Below, piece after piece: positions 14,872 through 64,000 of a DNA stretch of 64,000 nt; within the stretch, counting starts at the first letter, position 1; the number at the start of each line of letters is the position of its first letter. Made by a program: the position numbers and the translations under genes. The stretch is from Escherichia phage vB_Ec-M-J, in sequence record OQ718158.1. The stretch is one strand, 5' to 3'. The notes beneath the pieces are model-generated. The model made no database searches. It was given only the letters and a program-made list of their open reading frames with translations, and was not told the DNA's origin.

Positions 14872-14931
14872 TTGACAAAGTATCTTAGTACTGTATAATA
14901 GTTTACATCAAGCGAGGGGAATGGTTCCCCT
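14872..14931 (+). promoter_or_regulatory. early promoter + 5' stem-loop
   Basis: TTGACA-16-TATAAT; hairpin GAGGGGAAtggTTCCCCTC. Confidence 0.65.
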
Positions 14932-14955
14932 CCTAACAAAGAGAGAGAAATAAAA

Positions 14956-15279
14956 ATGGCTATGATCCTTACCCAGAAAGTAGAACTGAAAATTGTAACC
15001 TCCTTTGACATTAACGTTAATCGGTGGACTGATTCACACGGCAATACTTACCACTCTTGCTACGTGTCTGCGTTAATTGGCGACCGCTGGGAAGACCTGG
15101 GACACGAAACCTTTACATACGGTTACGGTACACAAGGCGAATACACGGGCTTGGAGATCATTAAAGAAACCGTTATAGGTTTCAACCCGAAAGAAAAAGT
15201 TATTCACCGCATCGAGGAAGAGATCAACAAAGAAATAACAGTTCGATACAACGATGTAAAACGTAAGAAAGACATGTAA
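14956..15279 (+). CDS. hypothetical early protein; paralog of 8459..8782
   Basis: track ORF; conserved RWTDSHGNTYHSC block. Confidence 0.7.
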   Translation: MAMILTQKVELKIVTSFDINVNRWTDSHGNTYHSCYVSALIGDRWEDLGHETFTYGYGTQGEYTGLEIIKETVIGFNPKEKVIHRIEEEINKEITVRYNDVKRKKDM

Positions 15280-15301
15280 TAGAATCCATTTAAAGTACTA
15301 T

Positions 15302-15330
15302 TTGACATTGCCCAGATAGTACTTTATAAT
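15302..15330 (+). promoter_or_regulatory. sigma70-like promoter
   Basis: TTGACA-17-TATAAT. Confidence 0.55.
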
Positions 15331-15374
15331 AGACTCTAACTTGTAGTACTAACTCAACTAATAGGATGTATACC

Positions 15375-15770
15375 ATGATTACTAAATTCTACGCTACCCG
15401 TGAAGCTGCCCGTATTGTTGCACGCGAGGAAGGAGCAGCATTTAAAGACATGGGCAAAGATGCACCGAAAGGTCAACGCTGGGCCGTACAGTTCAAAGAA
15501 ATCTCTGATATTGTGAATTCACCTGAGCCAGTACTGACAGCAGCAGAACTAAAACGAGCGGATATGCTGGCGGCAATACTTGACGCACAAGATGAGTTTA
15601 TCGCTGATTCTGATATCAAAGTACAGGTAAACCACACCGCATGGACTCACGCGGATCACCTGGCAAACCTTAAGCGTCCAAGTGAACTGATTCGCAACCA
15701 GAAAGAGATCCGACACGACCGTAAGGGTAATCGTGTAACAGTATACAGTAAACGCCGCCAGGTTATCTAA
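15375..15770 (+). CDS. hypothetical early protein; paralog of 2861..3127
   Basis: start moved to ATG aligning with paralog (MITKFYATRE); track start 15366 is also possible. Confidence 0.6.
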   Translation: MITKFYATREAARIVAREEGAAFKDMGKDAPKGQRWAVQFKEISDIVNSPEPVLTAAELKRADMLAAILDAQDEFIADSDIKVQVNHTAWTHADHLANLKRPSELIRNQKEIRHDRKGNRVTVYSKRRQVI

Positions 15771-15800
15771 TAACTTGCAGTACTAACAACACGGCGGGAT

Positions 15801-15826
15801 CAGTTCCCGCCTTTTTTATAGGACAA
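15801..15826 (+). terminator. rho-independent terminator
   Basis: GGCGGGAtcagtTCCCGCC then TTTTTTAT. Confidence 0.7.
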
Positions 15827-15831
15827 ACAAC

Positions 15832-16086
15832 ATGATTAAGGTTCAACTATCAAACGATAATGTATTACGGGTACACTATAAAGCACCTCAGAGAATCATC
15901 ACAAAGGCCGTACAGCTTGCTAATGAGTTTATTAATGGTAACCTATTACCTAGGAAGTTAAGCAACGGGAAACTGCGTGTAATCGACGTGGACACTAACA
16001 ACAGGATAGTAATCGAGAACACAGGAAAGATAAACCTTTATGAGCATCAACAATACAATAAGAAAATAAAACTAATATCACGTTGA
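15832..16086 (+). CDS. hypothetical protein (84 aa)
   Basis: track ORF; RBS AGGA. Confidence 0.55.
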   Translation: MIKVQLSNDNVLRVHYKAPQRIITKAVQLANEFINGNLLPRKLSNGKLRVIDVDTNNRIVIENTGKINLYEHQQYNKKIKLISR

Positions 16087-59415: not shown

Positions 59416-59445
59416 GACATACCATAAGTTTATGATATAATGTAA

Positions 59446-59477
59446 GGTGACAGCAGAATATGTTGTCACCTTTTTTT
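59446..59477 (+). terminator. rho-independent terminator
   Basis: GGTGACAgcagaatatgtTGTCACC then TTTTTTT. Confidence 0.7.
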
Positions 59478-59479
59478 AA

Positions 59480-60005
59480 TCCTGAAAGGTTCCATATGGA
59501 AATGATTGAAGCCTAATCCACTCGAAAAGTAGAGGGTAGATGAGTAGTCCTTTCAGTACGAACAGCAAATGAAACCCGTTAGATGATGGCATAGTTTGAA
59601 CCACTCACGGCAATGCGGCTGTATAAAGAACTCCAATAGGATAAAGAGAGTTCCTCGATAGACATATAAGGATCGCACCTTACCAATTATCTAAGGGAGA
59701 TTTCATGAGAAATTTGCGGTCGTAATTTATACAAAATAGTTGCGTCCAAAATTCGTGAAATCAAATACAAGTACTGGTCATATGGTATTTGTATTATGTG
59801 TCGGGATGTTTAAGACCGACGACCGTTGCTACAAGAACCGCGATAGAGAGAAACAGAGCAACCCGCTTTCGCCTCGTAAGAGAATTCGTGATATGAACTA
59901 TGTGAAGGCCACCAGCGTCAAACTTTTTTTGTTCTTTCCCCTGCGGGGGGATGAAATATGCTCAAGCAAACCCCGTCAATATTAATTAAAACAAATCATA
60001 GTACT
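59480..60005. other. ~520-bp GC-richer non-coding island (candidate structured RNA or degraded gene)
   Basis: no RBS-supported ORF; composition differs from flanks; ends with CCCCtgcGGGG hairpin. Confidence 0.3.
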
Positions 60006-60009
60006 TTCG

Positions 60010-60038
60010 TTGAATTAGACATGCGAAGCGTGTATAAT
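60010..60038 (+). promoter_or_regulatory. sigma70-like promoter
   Basis: TTGAAT-17-TATAAT. Confidence 0.5.
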
Positions 60039-60096
60039 TCGACTGGTGTTGATGAAGTCAACGCCATGTACAGTCATTGATGTTTCCATAGGAATA

Positions 60097-60642
60097 ATGA
60101 TGTCATTTATTAAAAAATCTAAAAGCGTCACTTATAAAACACTAGAATTTGTTGATTCAGACAATCAGAACCAAGACCAGGAGAATTTTACTGGTTTTGT
60201 TGTGATTAAAGAAAAGGGATGTATTTCGTACATCAAAGAGTTGCAGTGCGGTTTTGAATTAACTTCCATTAAGTTATTCCCAACCAAGAAGCCTACAATT
60301 CTTAAAGCTCGTTATGGGAACTACTACGAAGAGCGTTATAGTAATAATCTAATCAGTGCGAAAGCACATATCGTCAATGGTGAACTAGAAGGAGAATATA
60401 GAAAATTCAACCCACAAGGAAAATGTGTTTGGGTTAAATACTTCAATTCAGGAAATGATGTAACATCAGAAATTATTGAGTTTTTAGGTTTAACATGTAC
60501 CCTTGAAACTCTTCATGATTACAAATTTAATACTGAAGAAGAGTTTAATCTGATGATGCGTTATGGATCACATTTTAAATTTTTATATGAATACAACATT
60601 GACAGTAGTACTTTTGATGACATAGTACTTAACTGTCTATAA
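60097..60642 (+). CDS. hypothetical protein (start uncertain: 60049, 60097 or 60100)
   Basis: track ORF 60046 (GTG) begins at predicted TSS; RBS-like AGGA before ATGATG. Confidence 0.5.
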   Translation: MMSFIKKSKSVTYKTLEFVDSDNQNQDQENFTGFVVIKEKGCISYIKELQCGFELTSIKLFPTKKPTILKARYGNYYEERYSNNLISAKAHIVNGELEGEYRKFNPQGKCVWVKYFNSGNDVTSEIIEFLGLTCTLETLHDYKFNTEEEFNLMMRYGSHFKFLYEYNIDSSTFDDIVLNCL

Positions 60643-60658
60643 TCAAAGGAAATTATGT

Positions 60659-61183
60659 ATGTCGAAGAAGGATGCTTCGAAGAAAAAACAATCAGTACAT
60701 TTCAGTACTGGAAAAGATAACTGGACTACTCCAAAGGATTTCTTTGAAGATTTGGATGAACTCTGGGAATTTACACTAGATGCAGCGTGTGTCAAAGAAA
60801 CTGCATTGTGTGATAAGTTCTTTACACCAGAAGACAATTCACTTGAACAGGACTGGGGAAACAATATCGTGTGGCTCAACCCACCGTACAGTGATTTGAA
60901 AACGTGGTTATCTAAGGCAGTTGATGCATATAATAACGGGGCAACTGTAGTTATTCTTGTACCCTCAAGAACCGATACAATTGCTTTTCAGGATTATGCT
61001 GCTAAAATATGTGATTGTATTTGTTTTATAAAAGGTCGCTTAAAGTTCGGCATTCCTGAAGAACCAGATAAAAAGACGGACAGTGCACCATTCCCTAGTT
61101 GTTTAATAGTACTTGATAAGTATTTGACTCCAGCTAAAATCAACTATCTTAAATCTCTTGGTCAGGTGATGAAGAACATATGA
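60659..61183 (+). CDS. DNA N6-adenine methyltransferase (phage Dam-like family)
   Basis: WTTPKDFFEDLDELWEFTLDAAC ... IVWLNPPYS: NPPY catalytic motif in the arrangement of small phage Dam-type MTases. Confidence 0.7.
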   Translation: MSKKDASKKKQSVHFSTGKDNWTTPKDFFEDLDELWEFTLDAACVKETALCDKFFTPEDNSLEQDWGNNIVWLNPPYSDLKTWLSKAVDAYNNGATVVILVPSRTDTIAFQDYAAKICDCICFIKGRLKFGIPEEPDKKTDSAPFPSCLIVLDKYLTPAKINYLKSLGQVMKNI

Positions 61184-61713
61184 AAGAAACATGTATATTA
61201 TCATTTATGCGATGTAACCCAATACATCACGGACATGGTTTAGTGTTTGAAAAAGCTCAAGCACTACAAGAACAGTACAATGCGGATTTGAAAATATTCC
61301 TTAGTACCAGTACTGATGCCGTCAAAAACCCATTACCTCCTGAACTGAAAATGTACTATACAGAAGGATTTTACCCATCTGTACAAGAAAATATCTATAC
61401 AGAAGATAATCTGTTTGATATAATGAGAGAACTGGATGGAAAGTACTTAGATGTTCTTTTCATATGTGGTTCAGATAGACTTGAACCATTCCAAAAAACA
61501 CTTGACACGTACAATGGGAAGTTATATAATTTTTGTTCAATCAAGGCAGTTCAAGCTGGAATTGACCGAAATGTAAGTCGCTACAGTTCCACACAGATGC
61601 GTGAGTTTGCCAAGAATGAAGATTTTAATAGCTTCAGTACTTTTCTACCTGGTAATGATGATGCACTGAAAATTAAACTATTTGAAGATGTAATAAAATA
61701 CATGAGGAAATAA
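61180..61713 (+). CDS. HxGH-motif nucleotidyltransferase (NMN/NaMN adenylyltransferase-like)
   Basis: FMRCNPIHHGH near N-terminus and SSTQMR near C-terminus (ISSTxxR-like); ATGA overlap with MTase gene. Confidence 0.55.
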   Translation: MKETCILSFMRCNPIHHGHGLVFEKAQALQEQYNADLKIFLSTSTDAVKNPLPPELKMYYTEGFYPSVQENIYTEDNLFDIMRELDGKYLDVLFICGSDRLEPFQKTLDTYNGKLYNFCSIKAVQAGIDRNVSRYSSTQMREFAKNEDFNSFSTFLPGNDDALKIKLFEDVIKYMRK

Positions 61714-61715
61714 CT

Positions 61716-62009
61716 ATGTCAGTACTGTTTAAAACTAACCCAGTACTTTGGGATCAGAATGAGGATTCGGGTTTCCGTTCAATCCATGTTGAATTCAAAG
61801 GTAATACGGTGGTTGCAATCATTGCAAACAAAACTTTAGGAAACTGGACTGCACAAGTTGTTCCTATGGGATATTCTTATACATCTGATGAAGTTGCGTT
61901 TCTGGCTGAATTATATAGTCAAACACCATTCATCATCAATGTTCTAGAGCGTAGTGATAAGTTAACACATGACGAAGTAATTGACTTCCTGGCGAACTTA
62001 CATGTCTGA
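61716..62009 (+). CDS. hypothetical protein (97 aa)
   Basis: track ORF; start 2 nt after upstream stop. Confidence 0.55.
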   Translation: MSVLFKTNPVLWDQNEDSGFRSIHVEFKGNTVVAIIANKTLGNWTAQVVPMGYSYTSDEVAFLAELYSQTPFIINVLERSDKLTHDEVIDFLANLHV

Positions 62010-62289
62010 TGATTCGAATCTAACAGGTTATTTTTTGCAAGAATCAATGATCAAATTCAGTGAACATTTTCCAGTACTAGATGGTGTGGAGATGTGGCAT
62101 GTAAAACCACTCTTCCACACTTTCAGTAAAGAGCACAAAATGTTATTGACTGAGGCTTGTAAATCGAATAAAATATGCCAAATCAAGATTGGTGTAAATG
62201 TCTACAAAGGATTAGTCATCTTTTTTGACAACAACAGCAACTACTTTTATATTGTTAAGGAGCATTACGTTGACAAATACAAATACTAA
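61981..62289 (+). CDS. hypothetical protein (102 aa)
   Basis: track ORF. Confidence 0.5.
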   Translation: MTSWRTYMSDDSNLTGYFLQESMIKFSEHFPVLDGVEMWHVKPLFHTFSKEHKMLLTEACKSNKICQIKIGVNVYKGLVIFFDNNSNYFYIVKEHYVDKYKY

Positions 62290-62887
62290 TACATACTTTC
62301 GTTATCTTCGCCTAGGGCTTTCCCTACGCCCAATCCGTGGTAAGTGTGATTCACTTGCTGATTTGGATTATGCATATGCATTACATTGTGATGGTGTTCA
62401 ATATGTATTAGGTGACTATGGCACATTCGAAGAATCCAATGACAGTTCAGAAATTATTGCTGGTGTTGCTAACCTTAACAACATTGCCAATAGTTCTCGT
62501 CATGAAATCGTTCTTGAAATTCAGAACTTCATTGAGAAAAATACTGGCAAGCGTACATGGTCATATGTCGGTACTGATGCACAAATGTCAATCGCATTTG
62601 GTAACGAAGATGGTTATGTAGCACAACTTATTATGGATTTCGAATCAGAAGAGAAGTTCCTAGAATACAAGGAAAAAATCATCCAATCCTTGTTGCAAAT
62701 GGGTATTCCTGAAGATCGTATGCCTGAAATTCAAAGCATTGATGAGTTTGTTCTTATCCCATCTGATGAAAAATATGATGCGATGTTTACAGCACTGAAC
62801 ATTCCTGGTGTAGTTGTTGAGTACTTCGATGATGGTGATGCTGACATTTACCTAGATCTCGACGACGATGATGACGATGATGAATAA
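62270..62887 (+). CDS. hypothetical protein with poly-Asp C-terminal tail
   Basis: in-frame TTG after RBS AAGGAG (track 62225 is also TTG); ends DLDDDDDDDE. Confidence 0.5.
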   Translation: MTNTNTNTYFRYLRLGLSLRPIRGKCDSLADLDYAYALHCDGVQYVLGDYGTFEESNDSSEIIAGVANLNNIANSSRHEIVLEIQNFIEKNTGKRTWSYVGTDAQMSIAFGNEDGYVAQLIMDFESEEKFLEYKEKIIQSLLQMGIPEDRMPEIQSIDEFVLIPSDEKYDAMFTALNIPGVVVEYFDDGDADIYLDLDDDDDDDE

Positions 62888-62894
62888 TACATAT

Positions 62895-62923
62895 AGCCCG
62901 ACATAAGTTCGGGCTATTTTTTT
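62895..62923 (+). terminator. rho-independent terminator
   Basis: AGCCCGacataagttCGGGCT then ATTTTTTT. Confidence 0.7.
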
Positions 62924-62933
62924 AAGGGGAAAT

Positions 62934-63203
62934 ATGAATTACAAACATATACAATTCACTTATATGGAATTATTTAAATTACACCATAATCACAGAAGTA
63001 CTAACACAATTAATAAAAATGCGTTTACTCATAAATTATGGTCAAATTACCTAGAAGAATTACGTGAGTATTTTATTGATACTGAAATTTTCATTAATGG
63101 AAAAAAACGAAAGATACTTAGAGTCGATAGTTTTGGTGGTAGATTAGTACTTTCATATAAATTTGATAACGACTTATTCTCTGTTGATTTGGTGAATATA
63201 TGA
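62934..63203 (+). CDS. F3 paralog (MNYK..QFTY family)
   Basis: track ORF; N-terminus MNYKHIQFTYMELF. Confidence 0.55.
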   Translation: MNYKHIQFTYMELFKLHHNHRSTNTINKNAFTHKLWSNYLEELREYFIDTEIFINGKKRKILRVDSFGGRLVLSYKFDNDLFSVDLVNI

Positions 63204-63460
63204 ATTATAAAGATTTCCAATTAACATTCAAGTGCATTCGTGACCTAGCAAATAAAAATAATAGTATATTTTTAGAAGATACATGTATTGAAATGATTAA
63301 TATTGTGCGTGAGAGGATTAAAGAAAAATTCAGTACTGTAATTATCAACAACGATCATGCAGAATTTTCAGATATAATCATTAAGCTCGATGGTAAAGTA
63401 GAGGTACAGTTCTACACTGATTTTGGATTTACGAGTGTTCCTCTGGAGATATTCCCTTGA
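63200..63460 (+). CDS. F3 paralog
   Basis: ATGA overlap; MNYKDFQLTFKCI. Confidence 0.55.
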   Translation: MNYKDFQLTFKCIRDLANKNNSIFLEDTCIEMINIVRERIKEKFSTVIINNDHAEFSDIIIKLDGKVEVQFYTDFGFTSVPLEIFP

Positions 63461-63768
63461 AATTAAATTTGAATGATGTTCAATTCACGTATAAAAATAT
63501 ATATGGTTTGTATGACATGTATCTTTTTAGTGGGAAGATTGGTGAACATGTCGAATCAAAAGAATCACCATTTATTAATAATTACTATGATTACTTAGAT
63601 TCTATTGCTGAATATATAAAAAAGAATTACAGTACTTACACTGATGGAGATGACATATTTGAATATTCAGGTGTAAAATCTTATCAAGGTATTATCCATG
63701 TAGAATTTCTTGAAAAAACTGATAGGGAATTTATGGAGATTAAAGTTATGAAGTTAACGGACCTATAA
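63457..63768 (+). CDS. F3 paralog
   Basis: ATGA overlap; MKLNLNDVQFTYKNIYGLY. Confidence 0.55.
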   Translation: MKLNLNDVQFTYKNIYGLYDMYLFSGKIGEHVESKESPFINNYYDYLDSIAEYIKKNYSTYTDGDDIFEYSGVKSYQGIIHVEFLEKTDREFMEIKVMKLTDL

Positions 63769-63778
63769 GAGTTGACAT

Positions 63779-64000
63779 ATGAATATTAATGATATACAAT
63801 TCACATACAAATTTTTGTATATCCAATACGCTACGGTTGATGCTGGAGAATATCTCTACGGTGAAATCTATCGTTCGGTATGGATAAAGTTTTTGGATGA
63901 ATTACATGAATATTACCATGATTTGTGTATAGTTCGTGATAATAAAATATACAAATTCCGCGATATTGTTAGTCATAGCGGTAAGCTACGATTGGAATTA
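63779..64000 (+). CDS. F3 paralog (3'-truncated by window end)
   Basis: ATG after RBS AAGAG; MNINDIQFTYKFLYIQY; no stop before window end. Confidence 0.5.
   Translation, partial: MNINDIQFTYKFLYIQYATVDAGEYLYGEIYRSVWIKFLDELHEYYHDLCIVRDNKIYKFRDIVSHSGKLRLEL

Follow-up and report, generated by a model that had tools for sequence, protein, structure and literature searches.

A 64,000-nucleotide (nt) stretch of Escherichia phage vB_Ec-M-J (OQ718158.1; hereafter the window) ends, at positions 62934–64000, in a run of small genes whose products we call the F3 family. Comparison of their sequences shows that the F3 open reading frames (ORFs) are true, old paralogues. An earlier note on the same DNA had expected the array to continue past the window edge, and it does: in the related phage Turkey3, the four genes that begin in the window (F3-1 to F3-4) are followed by an adjacent fifth (F3-5), a gene for a 66-amino-acid (aa) protein with zinc-ribbon-like features (the Zn gene), a strongly diverged member (g428) and F3-6. 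The array is short, with seven members per genome, five of them in tandem. These proteins are already catalogued as five PHROG families and annotated as 'hypothetical protein' in every genome; what is new is their unification in one fold family, the extent of the array, a structural model and an account, slot by slot, of what is conserved, replaced or exchanged.

Bases 60000–64000 of the window match 35 phage genomes, every one an Asteriusvirus jumbo myovirus of E. coli or Salmonella (the 121Q/PBECO4 group), with eight at 95–99% identity (including EC.P1, Turkey3 and TH47) and 26 at 80–90%. The window belongs to a jumbo coliphage of the genus Asteriusvirus (121Q/PBECO4 type), of which it forms the left arm. 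It corresponds to the first ~66 kb of the Turkey3 genome, in which nearly all genes are small, lie on the + strand and are annotated as hypothetical. Because window positions 62934–64000 are identical to Turkey3 14929–15995 (0 mismatches), we took Turkey3 as the continuation of the window and read the layout beyond the edge from it. Coordinates outside the window refer to the loci L001 (Turkey3), L004 (Klebsiella phage KP13-7) and L008 (Salmonella phage SD-1_S14); phage 121Q is L002.

Evidence for a single paralogue family

Pairwise identity among the F3 paralogues is 12–30%, and pairwise BLAST connects some pairs (E 4e-6 to 6e-3) but none that includes F3-2. The profile of phrog_21004 matches all five tandem members, with E values from 3e-44 to 1.6e-4 (F3-4, 3.2e-44; F3-3, 4.8e-35; F3-1, 4.7e-6; F3-2, 1.2e-4; F3-5, 1.6e-4), and F3-6 was found by a five-member hidden Markov model (HMM) at E 4.6e-4. 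An iterative HMM search of all ORFs of the window and three other loci, in which reversed sequences served as decoys, settled on precisely six members in each genome, and no decoy scored better than 1e-3. Alignment and profile comparison therefore show a homology that is real but remote. The F3 profile finds nothing at E<0.01 in the rest of the window; kinship with the window's other paralogue families was rejected on this ground, and the proposal that F3 is a separate tandem family, here joined by phrog_21004 and the joint HMM, is borne out.

The shared N-terminal motif that had drawn attention to these genes is present in all four window ORFs: F3-1 begins MNYKHIQFTYM, F3-2 MNYKDFQLTFK, F3-3 MKLNLNDVQFTYK and F3-4 MNINDIQFTYK, the motif being relaxed to F-Q-L-T-F-K in F3-2. 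The motif, for which our criterion was [IVF]-Q-x-T-Y-K within the first 13 residues, is specific to F3. QFTY turns up three times when 76 kb is translated in all six frames, each time at an F3 N-terminus; a degenerate pattern has 11 matches, and the six F3 N-termini account for six of them. The third codon positions of the motif vary among copies (ACT/ACA/ACG and TAT/TAC), indicating that the constraint acts on the protein.

We count g428 as a seventh, diverged member, a placement suggested by profile–profile alignment. When deepened by eight orthologues, g428 aligned to the F3 profile in hhalign with a probability of 84.7% (P 6.6e-6, score 33.6), whereas 100 column-shuffled profiles scored 10.2 ± 1.9 with a maximum of 17. 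The alignment spans helix 2 and the sheet, and the N-terminus of g428 retains I-V-H-T-Y-K. Among 26 other neighbouring small genes subjected to the same test, none was comparable. Four of the genes examined (g431, g433, g448 and g450) reached z values of 3–5 against F3, compared with 1.7 or less for clearly unrelated controls, which we did not accept as proof. The possibility that the downstream run of 80–110-aa genes forms one superfamily with F3 was likewise rejected, as the iterative HMM closes at six per genome and hhalign supports g428 only.

Weak in-register matches to the F3 profile (hhalign z 3–5, P 4e-4 to 3e-2) occur in several 90–110-aa downstream genes and in syntenic genes of Klebsiella phages. 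These weakly F3-like genes lie at L001 17228–17512, 18309–18593, 23822–24118 and 24482–24811 and at L004 8080–8397, 8863–9132 and 17183–17482.

In PHROGs the proteins are assigned to separate families of 'unknown function': F3-3 and F3-4 to phrog_21004, F3-1 to phrog_32291, F3-2 to phrog_35943, F3-6 to phrog_28826 and g428 to phrog_33961. These are the same proteins as F3, treated there as five families and here as one through the phrog_21004 cross-matches, the joint HMM, hhalign, the motif and the AlphaFold models.

All four window ORFs were found where the earlier note had placed them, encoding 89, 86, 103 and, in Turkey3, 103 aa, with the fourth running off the window. F3-1 (62934–63203, +; 89 aa, isoelectric point (pI) 9.3; phrog_32291, E 3.5e-29) starts with ATG behind an AGGGG Shine–Dalgarno sequence. 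The ATG of F3-2 (63200–63460, +; 86 aa, pI 4.8; phrog_35943, E 1.3e-44), the most divergent of the tandem members, lies in an ATGA overlap with the F3-1 stop codon. F3-3 (63457–63768, +; 103 aa, pI 4.7) starts with TTG in a TTGA overlap with the F3-2 stop codon, with a GGAG Shine–Dalgarno sequence 9 nt upstream; both the start codon and the GGAG are kept in 121Q. F3-4 (63779–64000, +) starts with ATG after a 10-nt spacer, and the window holds its first 74 codons. The description of the genes as ATGA-coupled therefore holds at the first junction and fails at the other two. An alternative F3-3 start at TTG 63469, which would give M-N-D-V-Q-F-T-Y-K, was rejected: it has no Shine–Dalgarno sequence, and orthologues retain the upstream TTG and GGAG.

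The F3-4 start codon lies within a near-consensus sigma-70-like site at window positions 63772–63800 (TTGACA, 17 nt, TACAAT; 11 of 12 matches). The conserved I-Q-F codons supply the −10 hexamer, and F3-1 has the same TACAAT. As promoter-like sites in the F3 region were no more common than in shuffled sequence, we make no claim of a promoter.

Beyond the window, F3-5 (94 aa) has its ATG 38 nt inside F3-4, behind a GGAGTTGGAG Shine–Dalgarno sequence. The Zn gene (L001 16325–16525, ~330 nt past the window end; phrog_22354) encodes a CxxC...CxxC protein that is unrelated to F3 and has no Pfam match. It is followed by g428 (87 aa) and F3-6 (96 aa, pI 9.0). F3-4 of the window-type and 121Q lineages ends in a C-terminal tail of ~13 residues (ENEKQLKGNTSIL; L001 16048–16085, ~50 nt past the window end) that overlaps, in another frame, the Shine–Dalgarno sequence and first 12 codons of F3-5; the protein in the F3-4 slot of phage A4 lacks the tail and ends in an ATGA-type overlap.

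The F3 block is tightly packed, consists mostly of overlapping genes and is bracketed by terminator-like hairpins. One of these, at 62893–62917 (+; a 9-bp stem with five G–C pairs, followed by TTTTTTT), lies 16 nt upstream of the F3-1 start, is also found in 121Q and A4, and marks the 5′ border of the block. F3-6 is followed by a 57-aa hydrophobic ORF, a 94-aa gene, a 242-aa gene and another 94-aa gene, and the next strong downstream terminator-like hairpin is at L001 18600–18619, outside the window.

Predicted fold and conserved residues

The F3 proteins are single-domain proteins of 86–105 aa in which, according to the predicted structures, an N-terminal helical hairpin packs on a four-stranded antiparallel sheet. 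The AlphaFold2 model of F3-1, built on a 21-sequence family alignment, has a predicted local distance difference test (pLDDT) score of 92.6 and a predicted template modelling (pTM) score of 0.81, with helices at residues 3–23 and 26–47 and strands at 51–54, 57–67, 70–77 and 80–85. When modelled from its own orthologues only, F3-2 (pLDDT 85.4) shows the same element order (H-H-E-E-E), the first strand not being formed, and the top match of this model in BFVD, a collection of predicted viral structures, is an F3-1 orthologue (E 1.7e-3, template modelling (TM) score 0.47).

Across the 21 sequences, G69, in the turn between strands 2 and 3, is the sole invariant residue, and N2, Q7, T9 and Y10, at the start of helix 1, are near-invariant. 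This pattern fits a scaffold with one small conserved patch rather than an active site. The pI ranges from 4.7 to 9.3 within the family.

Scans of all members and their neighbours against Pfam, NCBIfam and PADLOC returned nothing significant; with PADLOC, no F3 member and no Zn gene had a match even at E ≤ 0.1. Matches of F3-2 to Cdc13_OB2 (E 0.0056) and of F3-6 to Phage_Gene33 (E 0.0078) were rejected, being far under the gathering scores and inconsistent among paralogues, as was the one match in a sequence-profile search of the PDB (E 0.09). We found no solved structure in the PDB that matches the whole F3 domain in sequence or fold. Foldseek gives weak BFVD matches for the C-terminal half, a four-stranded meander: a phage KOW-domain protein (E 0.019, TM 0.48), DUF4222 and an SH3-C-like protein. 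These matches span just 40–55 residues at E 0.02–0.2 and have no counterpart in sequence. Moreover, F3 has four strands against a helical hairpin, whereas SH3- and KOW-like domains are five-stranded barrels.

Distribution, turnover and exchange

In the databases searched, the F3 family is restricted to the genus Asteriusvirus. A word-indexed profile search of 5.8 billion proteins gave 32 clusters, each derived from a phage of this kind or from an E. coli assembly that contains one; an exhaustive HMMER search of 1.84 billion representatives gave 16 true members and one spurious repeat protein; and IMG/VR gave only 121Q itself. The same arrangement (five genes in tandem, then the Zn gene, g428 and F3-6) is seen in 121Q (F3 genes 422–426, 428 and 429), A4, UE-S1, phAPEC6 and two metagenome assemblies, with gene order and length kept in at least six genomes and metagenome assemblies. 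We found nothing about the family in the literature on Asteriusvirus paralogues and transcriptomes, and no transcriptome or interaction data for the genus.

The Klebsiella Alcyoneusvirus KP13-7 has the neighbours of the array: an acidic-tailed 201-aa protein, the Zn gene (L004 8397–8597) and a 242-aa protein. In Alcyoneusvirus (RaK2 and KP13-7), proteins of 89–105 aa flank the same Zn gene and resemble F3 in position, size and C-terminal pattern, with weak profile matches (hhalign P 4e-4 to 4e-3) and, for the 89-aa protein of RaK2, a marginal Foldseek match (TM 0.66, E 7.8e-3). Unlike F3, however, they are detected neither by HMMER among the 1.84 billion representatives nor by PHROG profiles. 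We did not accept them as F3 homologues, as the signals fail multiple-testing correction and lack a PHROG link; homology across the two genera is plausible, and sequence searches may greatly understate how far the alpha2-beta4 fold extends among RaK2-like phages. The Zn gene is clearly conserved in an Alcyoneusvirus, KP13-7, while the genes on either side diverge past recognition.

Relative to 121Q, the F3 genes have omega values of 0.17–0.30 (F3-1, 0.30; F3-2, 0.17; F3-3, 0.19) at a synonymous divergence (dS) of about 1, indicating that they are expressed genes under purifying selection. Their non-synonymous divergence (dN) is nonetheless 0.15–0.35, compared with 0.04–0.10 for the flanking enzymes, which makes them 2–5 times faster. 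Across six genomes, F3-1, F3-2, F3-3, g428 and F3-6 show 27–77% protein identity, whereas their neighbours show 84–98%. F3-1 occupies a hypervariable slot (45–56% aa identity with other Asteriusvirus lineages), and F3-5 and the Zn gene (both 96–100%) occupy slots that are conserved in most lineages. Across Asteriusvirus as a whole, the Zn-gene protein shows 95–97% identity.

Slots also change their content. In A4, the first three slots are all closest to F3-1, and the F3-2 and F3-3 types are absent, indicating birth-and-death turnover. The Salmonella phage SD-1_S14 (310 kb) keeps F3-1, F3-4, F3-5 and the Zn gene and has fragments or gaps at F3-2, F3-3, g428 and F3-6, and protein P0030 of SD-6_S16 is a remnant of an F3-2/F3-3 fusion. 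As F3-2, F3-3, g428 and F3-6 are decayed or lost in genome-reduced Salmonella phages, they are dispensable. Turnover of F3 among related phages is unusually fast and typical of jumbo-phage accessory genes. At L008 14001–15601, SD-1_S14 has a 53-aa F3-2 fragment and a 49-aa g428 fragment, with F3-6 absent; the genome-reduced Salmonella Asteriusviruses are 310–326 kb in size and match the upstream Dam and cytidylyltransferase genes only partly.

The window-type lineage and 121Q, whose flanking DNA is ~80% identical, share 525 nt with zero mismatches (L001 15783–16307), a block that reflects recent exchange between the lineages. Its left end lies at window position 63788, in codon 4 of F3-4, and it extends through F3-5; near-identity goes on through the Zn gene to ~L001 16535, ending at codons 6–10 of g428. 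Both ends are thus in the motif-coding 5′ regions of family members, and F3-5 and the Zn gene travel together. Recombination may use the conserved 5′ motif as a joint.

Possible roles and genomic surroundings

The F3 block lies in the accessory left arm, between genes for Dam methyltransferase and cytidylyltransferase on one side and genes for RnlA, polynucleotide kinase (PNK) and phosphatases on the other. The identifiable genes nearby encode the Dam methyltransferase, a cytidylyltransferase-like protein, RnlA, PNK and Ser/Thr phosphatases; the remaining genes of the block are uncharacterised PHROGs. Clusters of small early genes for host takeover and anti-defence are found in T4-like and other large lytic phages, for example the ORFs around T4 rnlA and pnk, Dmd and Arn. 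Like these, the F3 genes are small, non-structural, close to RnlA/PNK and DNA-modification genes, dispensable and variable among close relatives. They differ in having no sequence or structural kinship to any characterised member, and in being one fold in seven copies rather than a mix of unrelated ORFans.

We tentatively favour, with slightly less than even confidence, a reading in which F3 comprises binding modules that lack enzymatic activity and serve host takeover or counter-defence, with different targets for different paralogues. Genomic surroundings, dispensability and the hypervariability of slots lend it indirect support. The proteins would be made early in infection. Each paralogue would combine the same scaffold and the common N-terminal patch (N2/Q7/T9/Y10) with a variable surface (pI 4.7 to 9.3 among paralogues), and would bind, then neutralise or redirect, a different host factor, most plausibly a defence component or part of the macromolecular machinery. 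The array would then be a diversified toolkit for host takeover and counter-defence, dispensable in permissive hosts.

The F3 proteins are non-virion: electrospray ionization tandem mass spectrometry identified 62 proteins in the phAPEC6 virion (PMC7247149, Table 1), and the F3 orthologues gp384 and gp386–389 are not among them, although small proteins can escape mass spectrometry. The authors of that study discuss methylation and the countering of Prr as host-invasion functions (PMC7247149).

Several points weigh against a counter-defence role. The idea draws on guilt by association and on the evolutionary pattern, and all other genes of the block are functionally uncharacterised. Positive selection leaves no direct sign: every informative omega value is below 1. 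Early expression is suggested by mere analogy with the early small genes of PA5oct, and the F3 region shows no promoter-like enrichment over shuffles. The high conservation of F3-5, in turn, is more in keeping with a housekeeping function in the phage than with an arms race.

The closest competitor differs from the favoured reading in target class alone and overlaps it otherwise. Here each paralogue would neutralise a specific toxin, either a host abortive-infection effector or one made by a competing phage, or would keep out superinfecting relatives, much as tandem immunity-gene arrays do. Tandem, small, fast-diversifying and individually dispensable paralogues with allele replacement among close relatives are the pattern of immunity genes in polymorphic toxin systems, and the absence of F3 from virions agrees with such a role; but no toxin-like gene is adjacent, each neighbour being an uncharacterised PHROG, and PADLOC gave no match, and we regard this immunity or antitoxin-like function as unlikely. 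A role as nucleic-acid-binding regulators seems improbable; here the C-terminal sheet would offer RNA or DNA an SH3/KOW-like surface, and phage transcription, translation or the fate of mRNA would be adjusted by the paralogues. The weak Foldseek matches to KOW, DUF4222 and SH3-C-like proteins, the RNA-repair enzymes RnlA and PNK in the neighbourhood and the basic character of F3-1 and F3-6 (pI 9.3 and 9.0) speak for such a role.

Two further explanations are poorly supported. We consider it very improbable that F3 supplies assembly chaperones, scaffolds or minor virion or internal proteins: the jumbo phages of this group do have many uncharacterised virion proteins, some of just 4.7–16 kDa, but the phAPEC6 orthologues are missing from the virion list, the structural modules are distant from the F3 genes, and Salmonella phages that have lost members are viable. 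We give hardly any credence to the view that they are decaying or non-functional duplicates, or that the family is an artefact of AT-rich composition. Low paralogue identity (12–30%) and the fragments in some relatives could be read in this way, yet the omega values of 0.17–0.33 at a dS of about 1, the preserved order and length, the conserved Shine–Dalgarno sites and start codons, the confident predicted folds and the lack of any reversed-sequence decoy at the inclusion threshold all argue against it.

A more specific elaboration, in which F3 would be a set of exchangeable, diversified inhibitors built on an unsolved alpha2-beta4 fold, strikes us as a long shot. Through the N2, Q7, T9 and Y10 patch, every paralogue would dock to the same partner, perhaps the co-conserved zinc-ribbon-like protein, and the variable surfaces would capture different host defence proteins. 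The 5′ coding motif would double as a homologous joint for cassette swaps between co-infecting phages, and the fold may have spread, past sequence recognition, over many 80–110-aa genes of RaK2-like phages.

Paralogue arrays of small accessory genes are familiar in jumbo phages, and the F3 array is not a new type of genetic system. More than 80% of the genes in these 350-kb phages are uncharacterised, however, and paralogue arrays make up much of the left arm. Five 'unknown' PHROGs become a single fold family whose scaffold is defined, whose motif is conserved and whose slots are either conserved or turned over, and the array offers a small candidate set for host-takeover or anti-defence roles: seven genes, with F3-5 and the Zn gene conserved and five hypervariable. 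Asteriusvirus phages are under development for therapy against avian pathogenic E. coli (APEC), uropathogenic E. coli (UPEC) and O157.

Other features of the window lie upstream of the array. Rfam and tRNA scans of the window were empty. An ORF-poor gap of ~630 nt (59416–60045), between g415 and g416 and after a strong terminator-like hairpin at 59444–59472, is common to all relatives; it contains no tRNA and no Rfam family, and its sole feature is an 18-nt imperfect direct repeat (59750 and 59883). The 177-aa gene at 61180–61713 is variously labelled 'ribonucleotide reductase A', 'cytidyltransferase' and 'phosphopantetheine adenylyltransferase' in GenBank, the first of which looks like a propagated misannotation. 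Directly upstream of the array, the gene at 62276–62887 (L001 14271–14882; phrog_15575) encodes a 203-aa protein with a poly-Asp/Glu tail of variable length. The window carries a 6-nt insertion in this gene relative to Turkey3 (62870–62875), and the protein is also kept in Klebsiella phage KP13-7.
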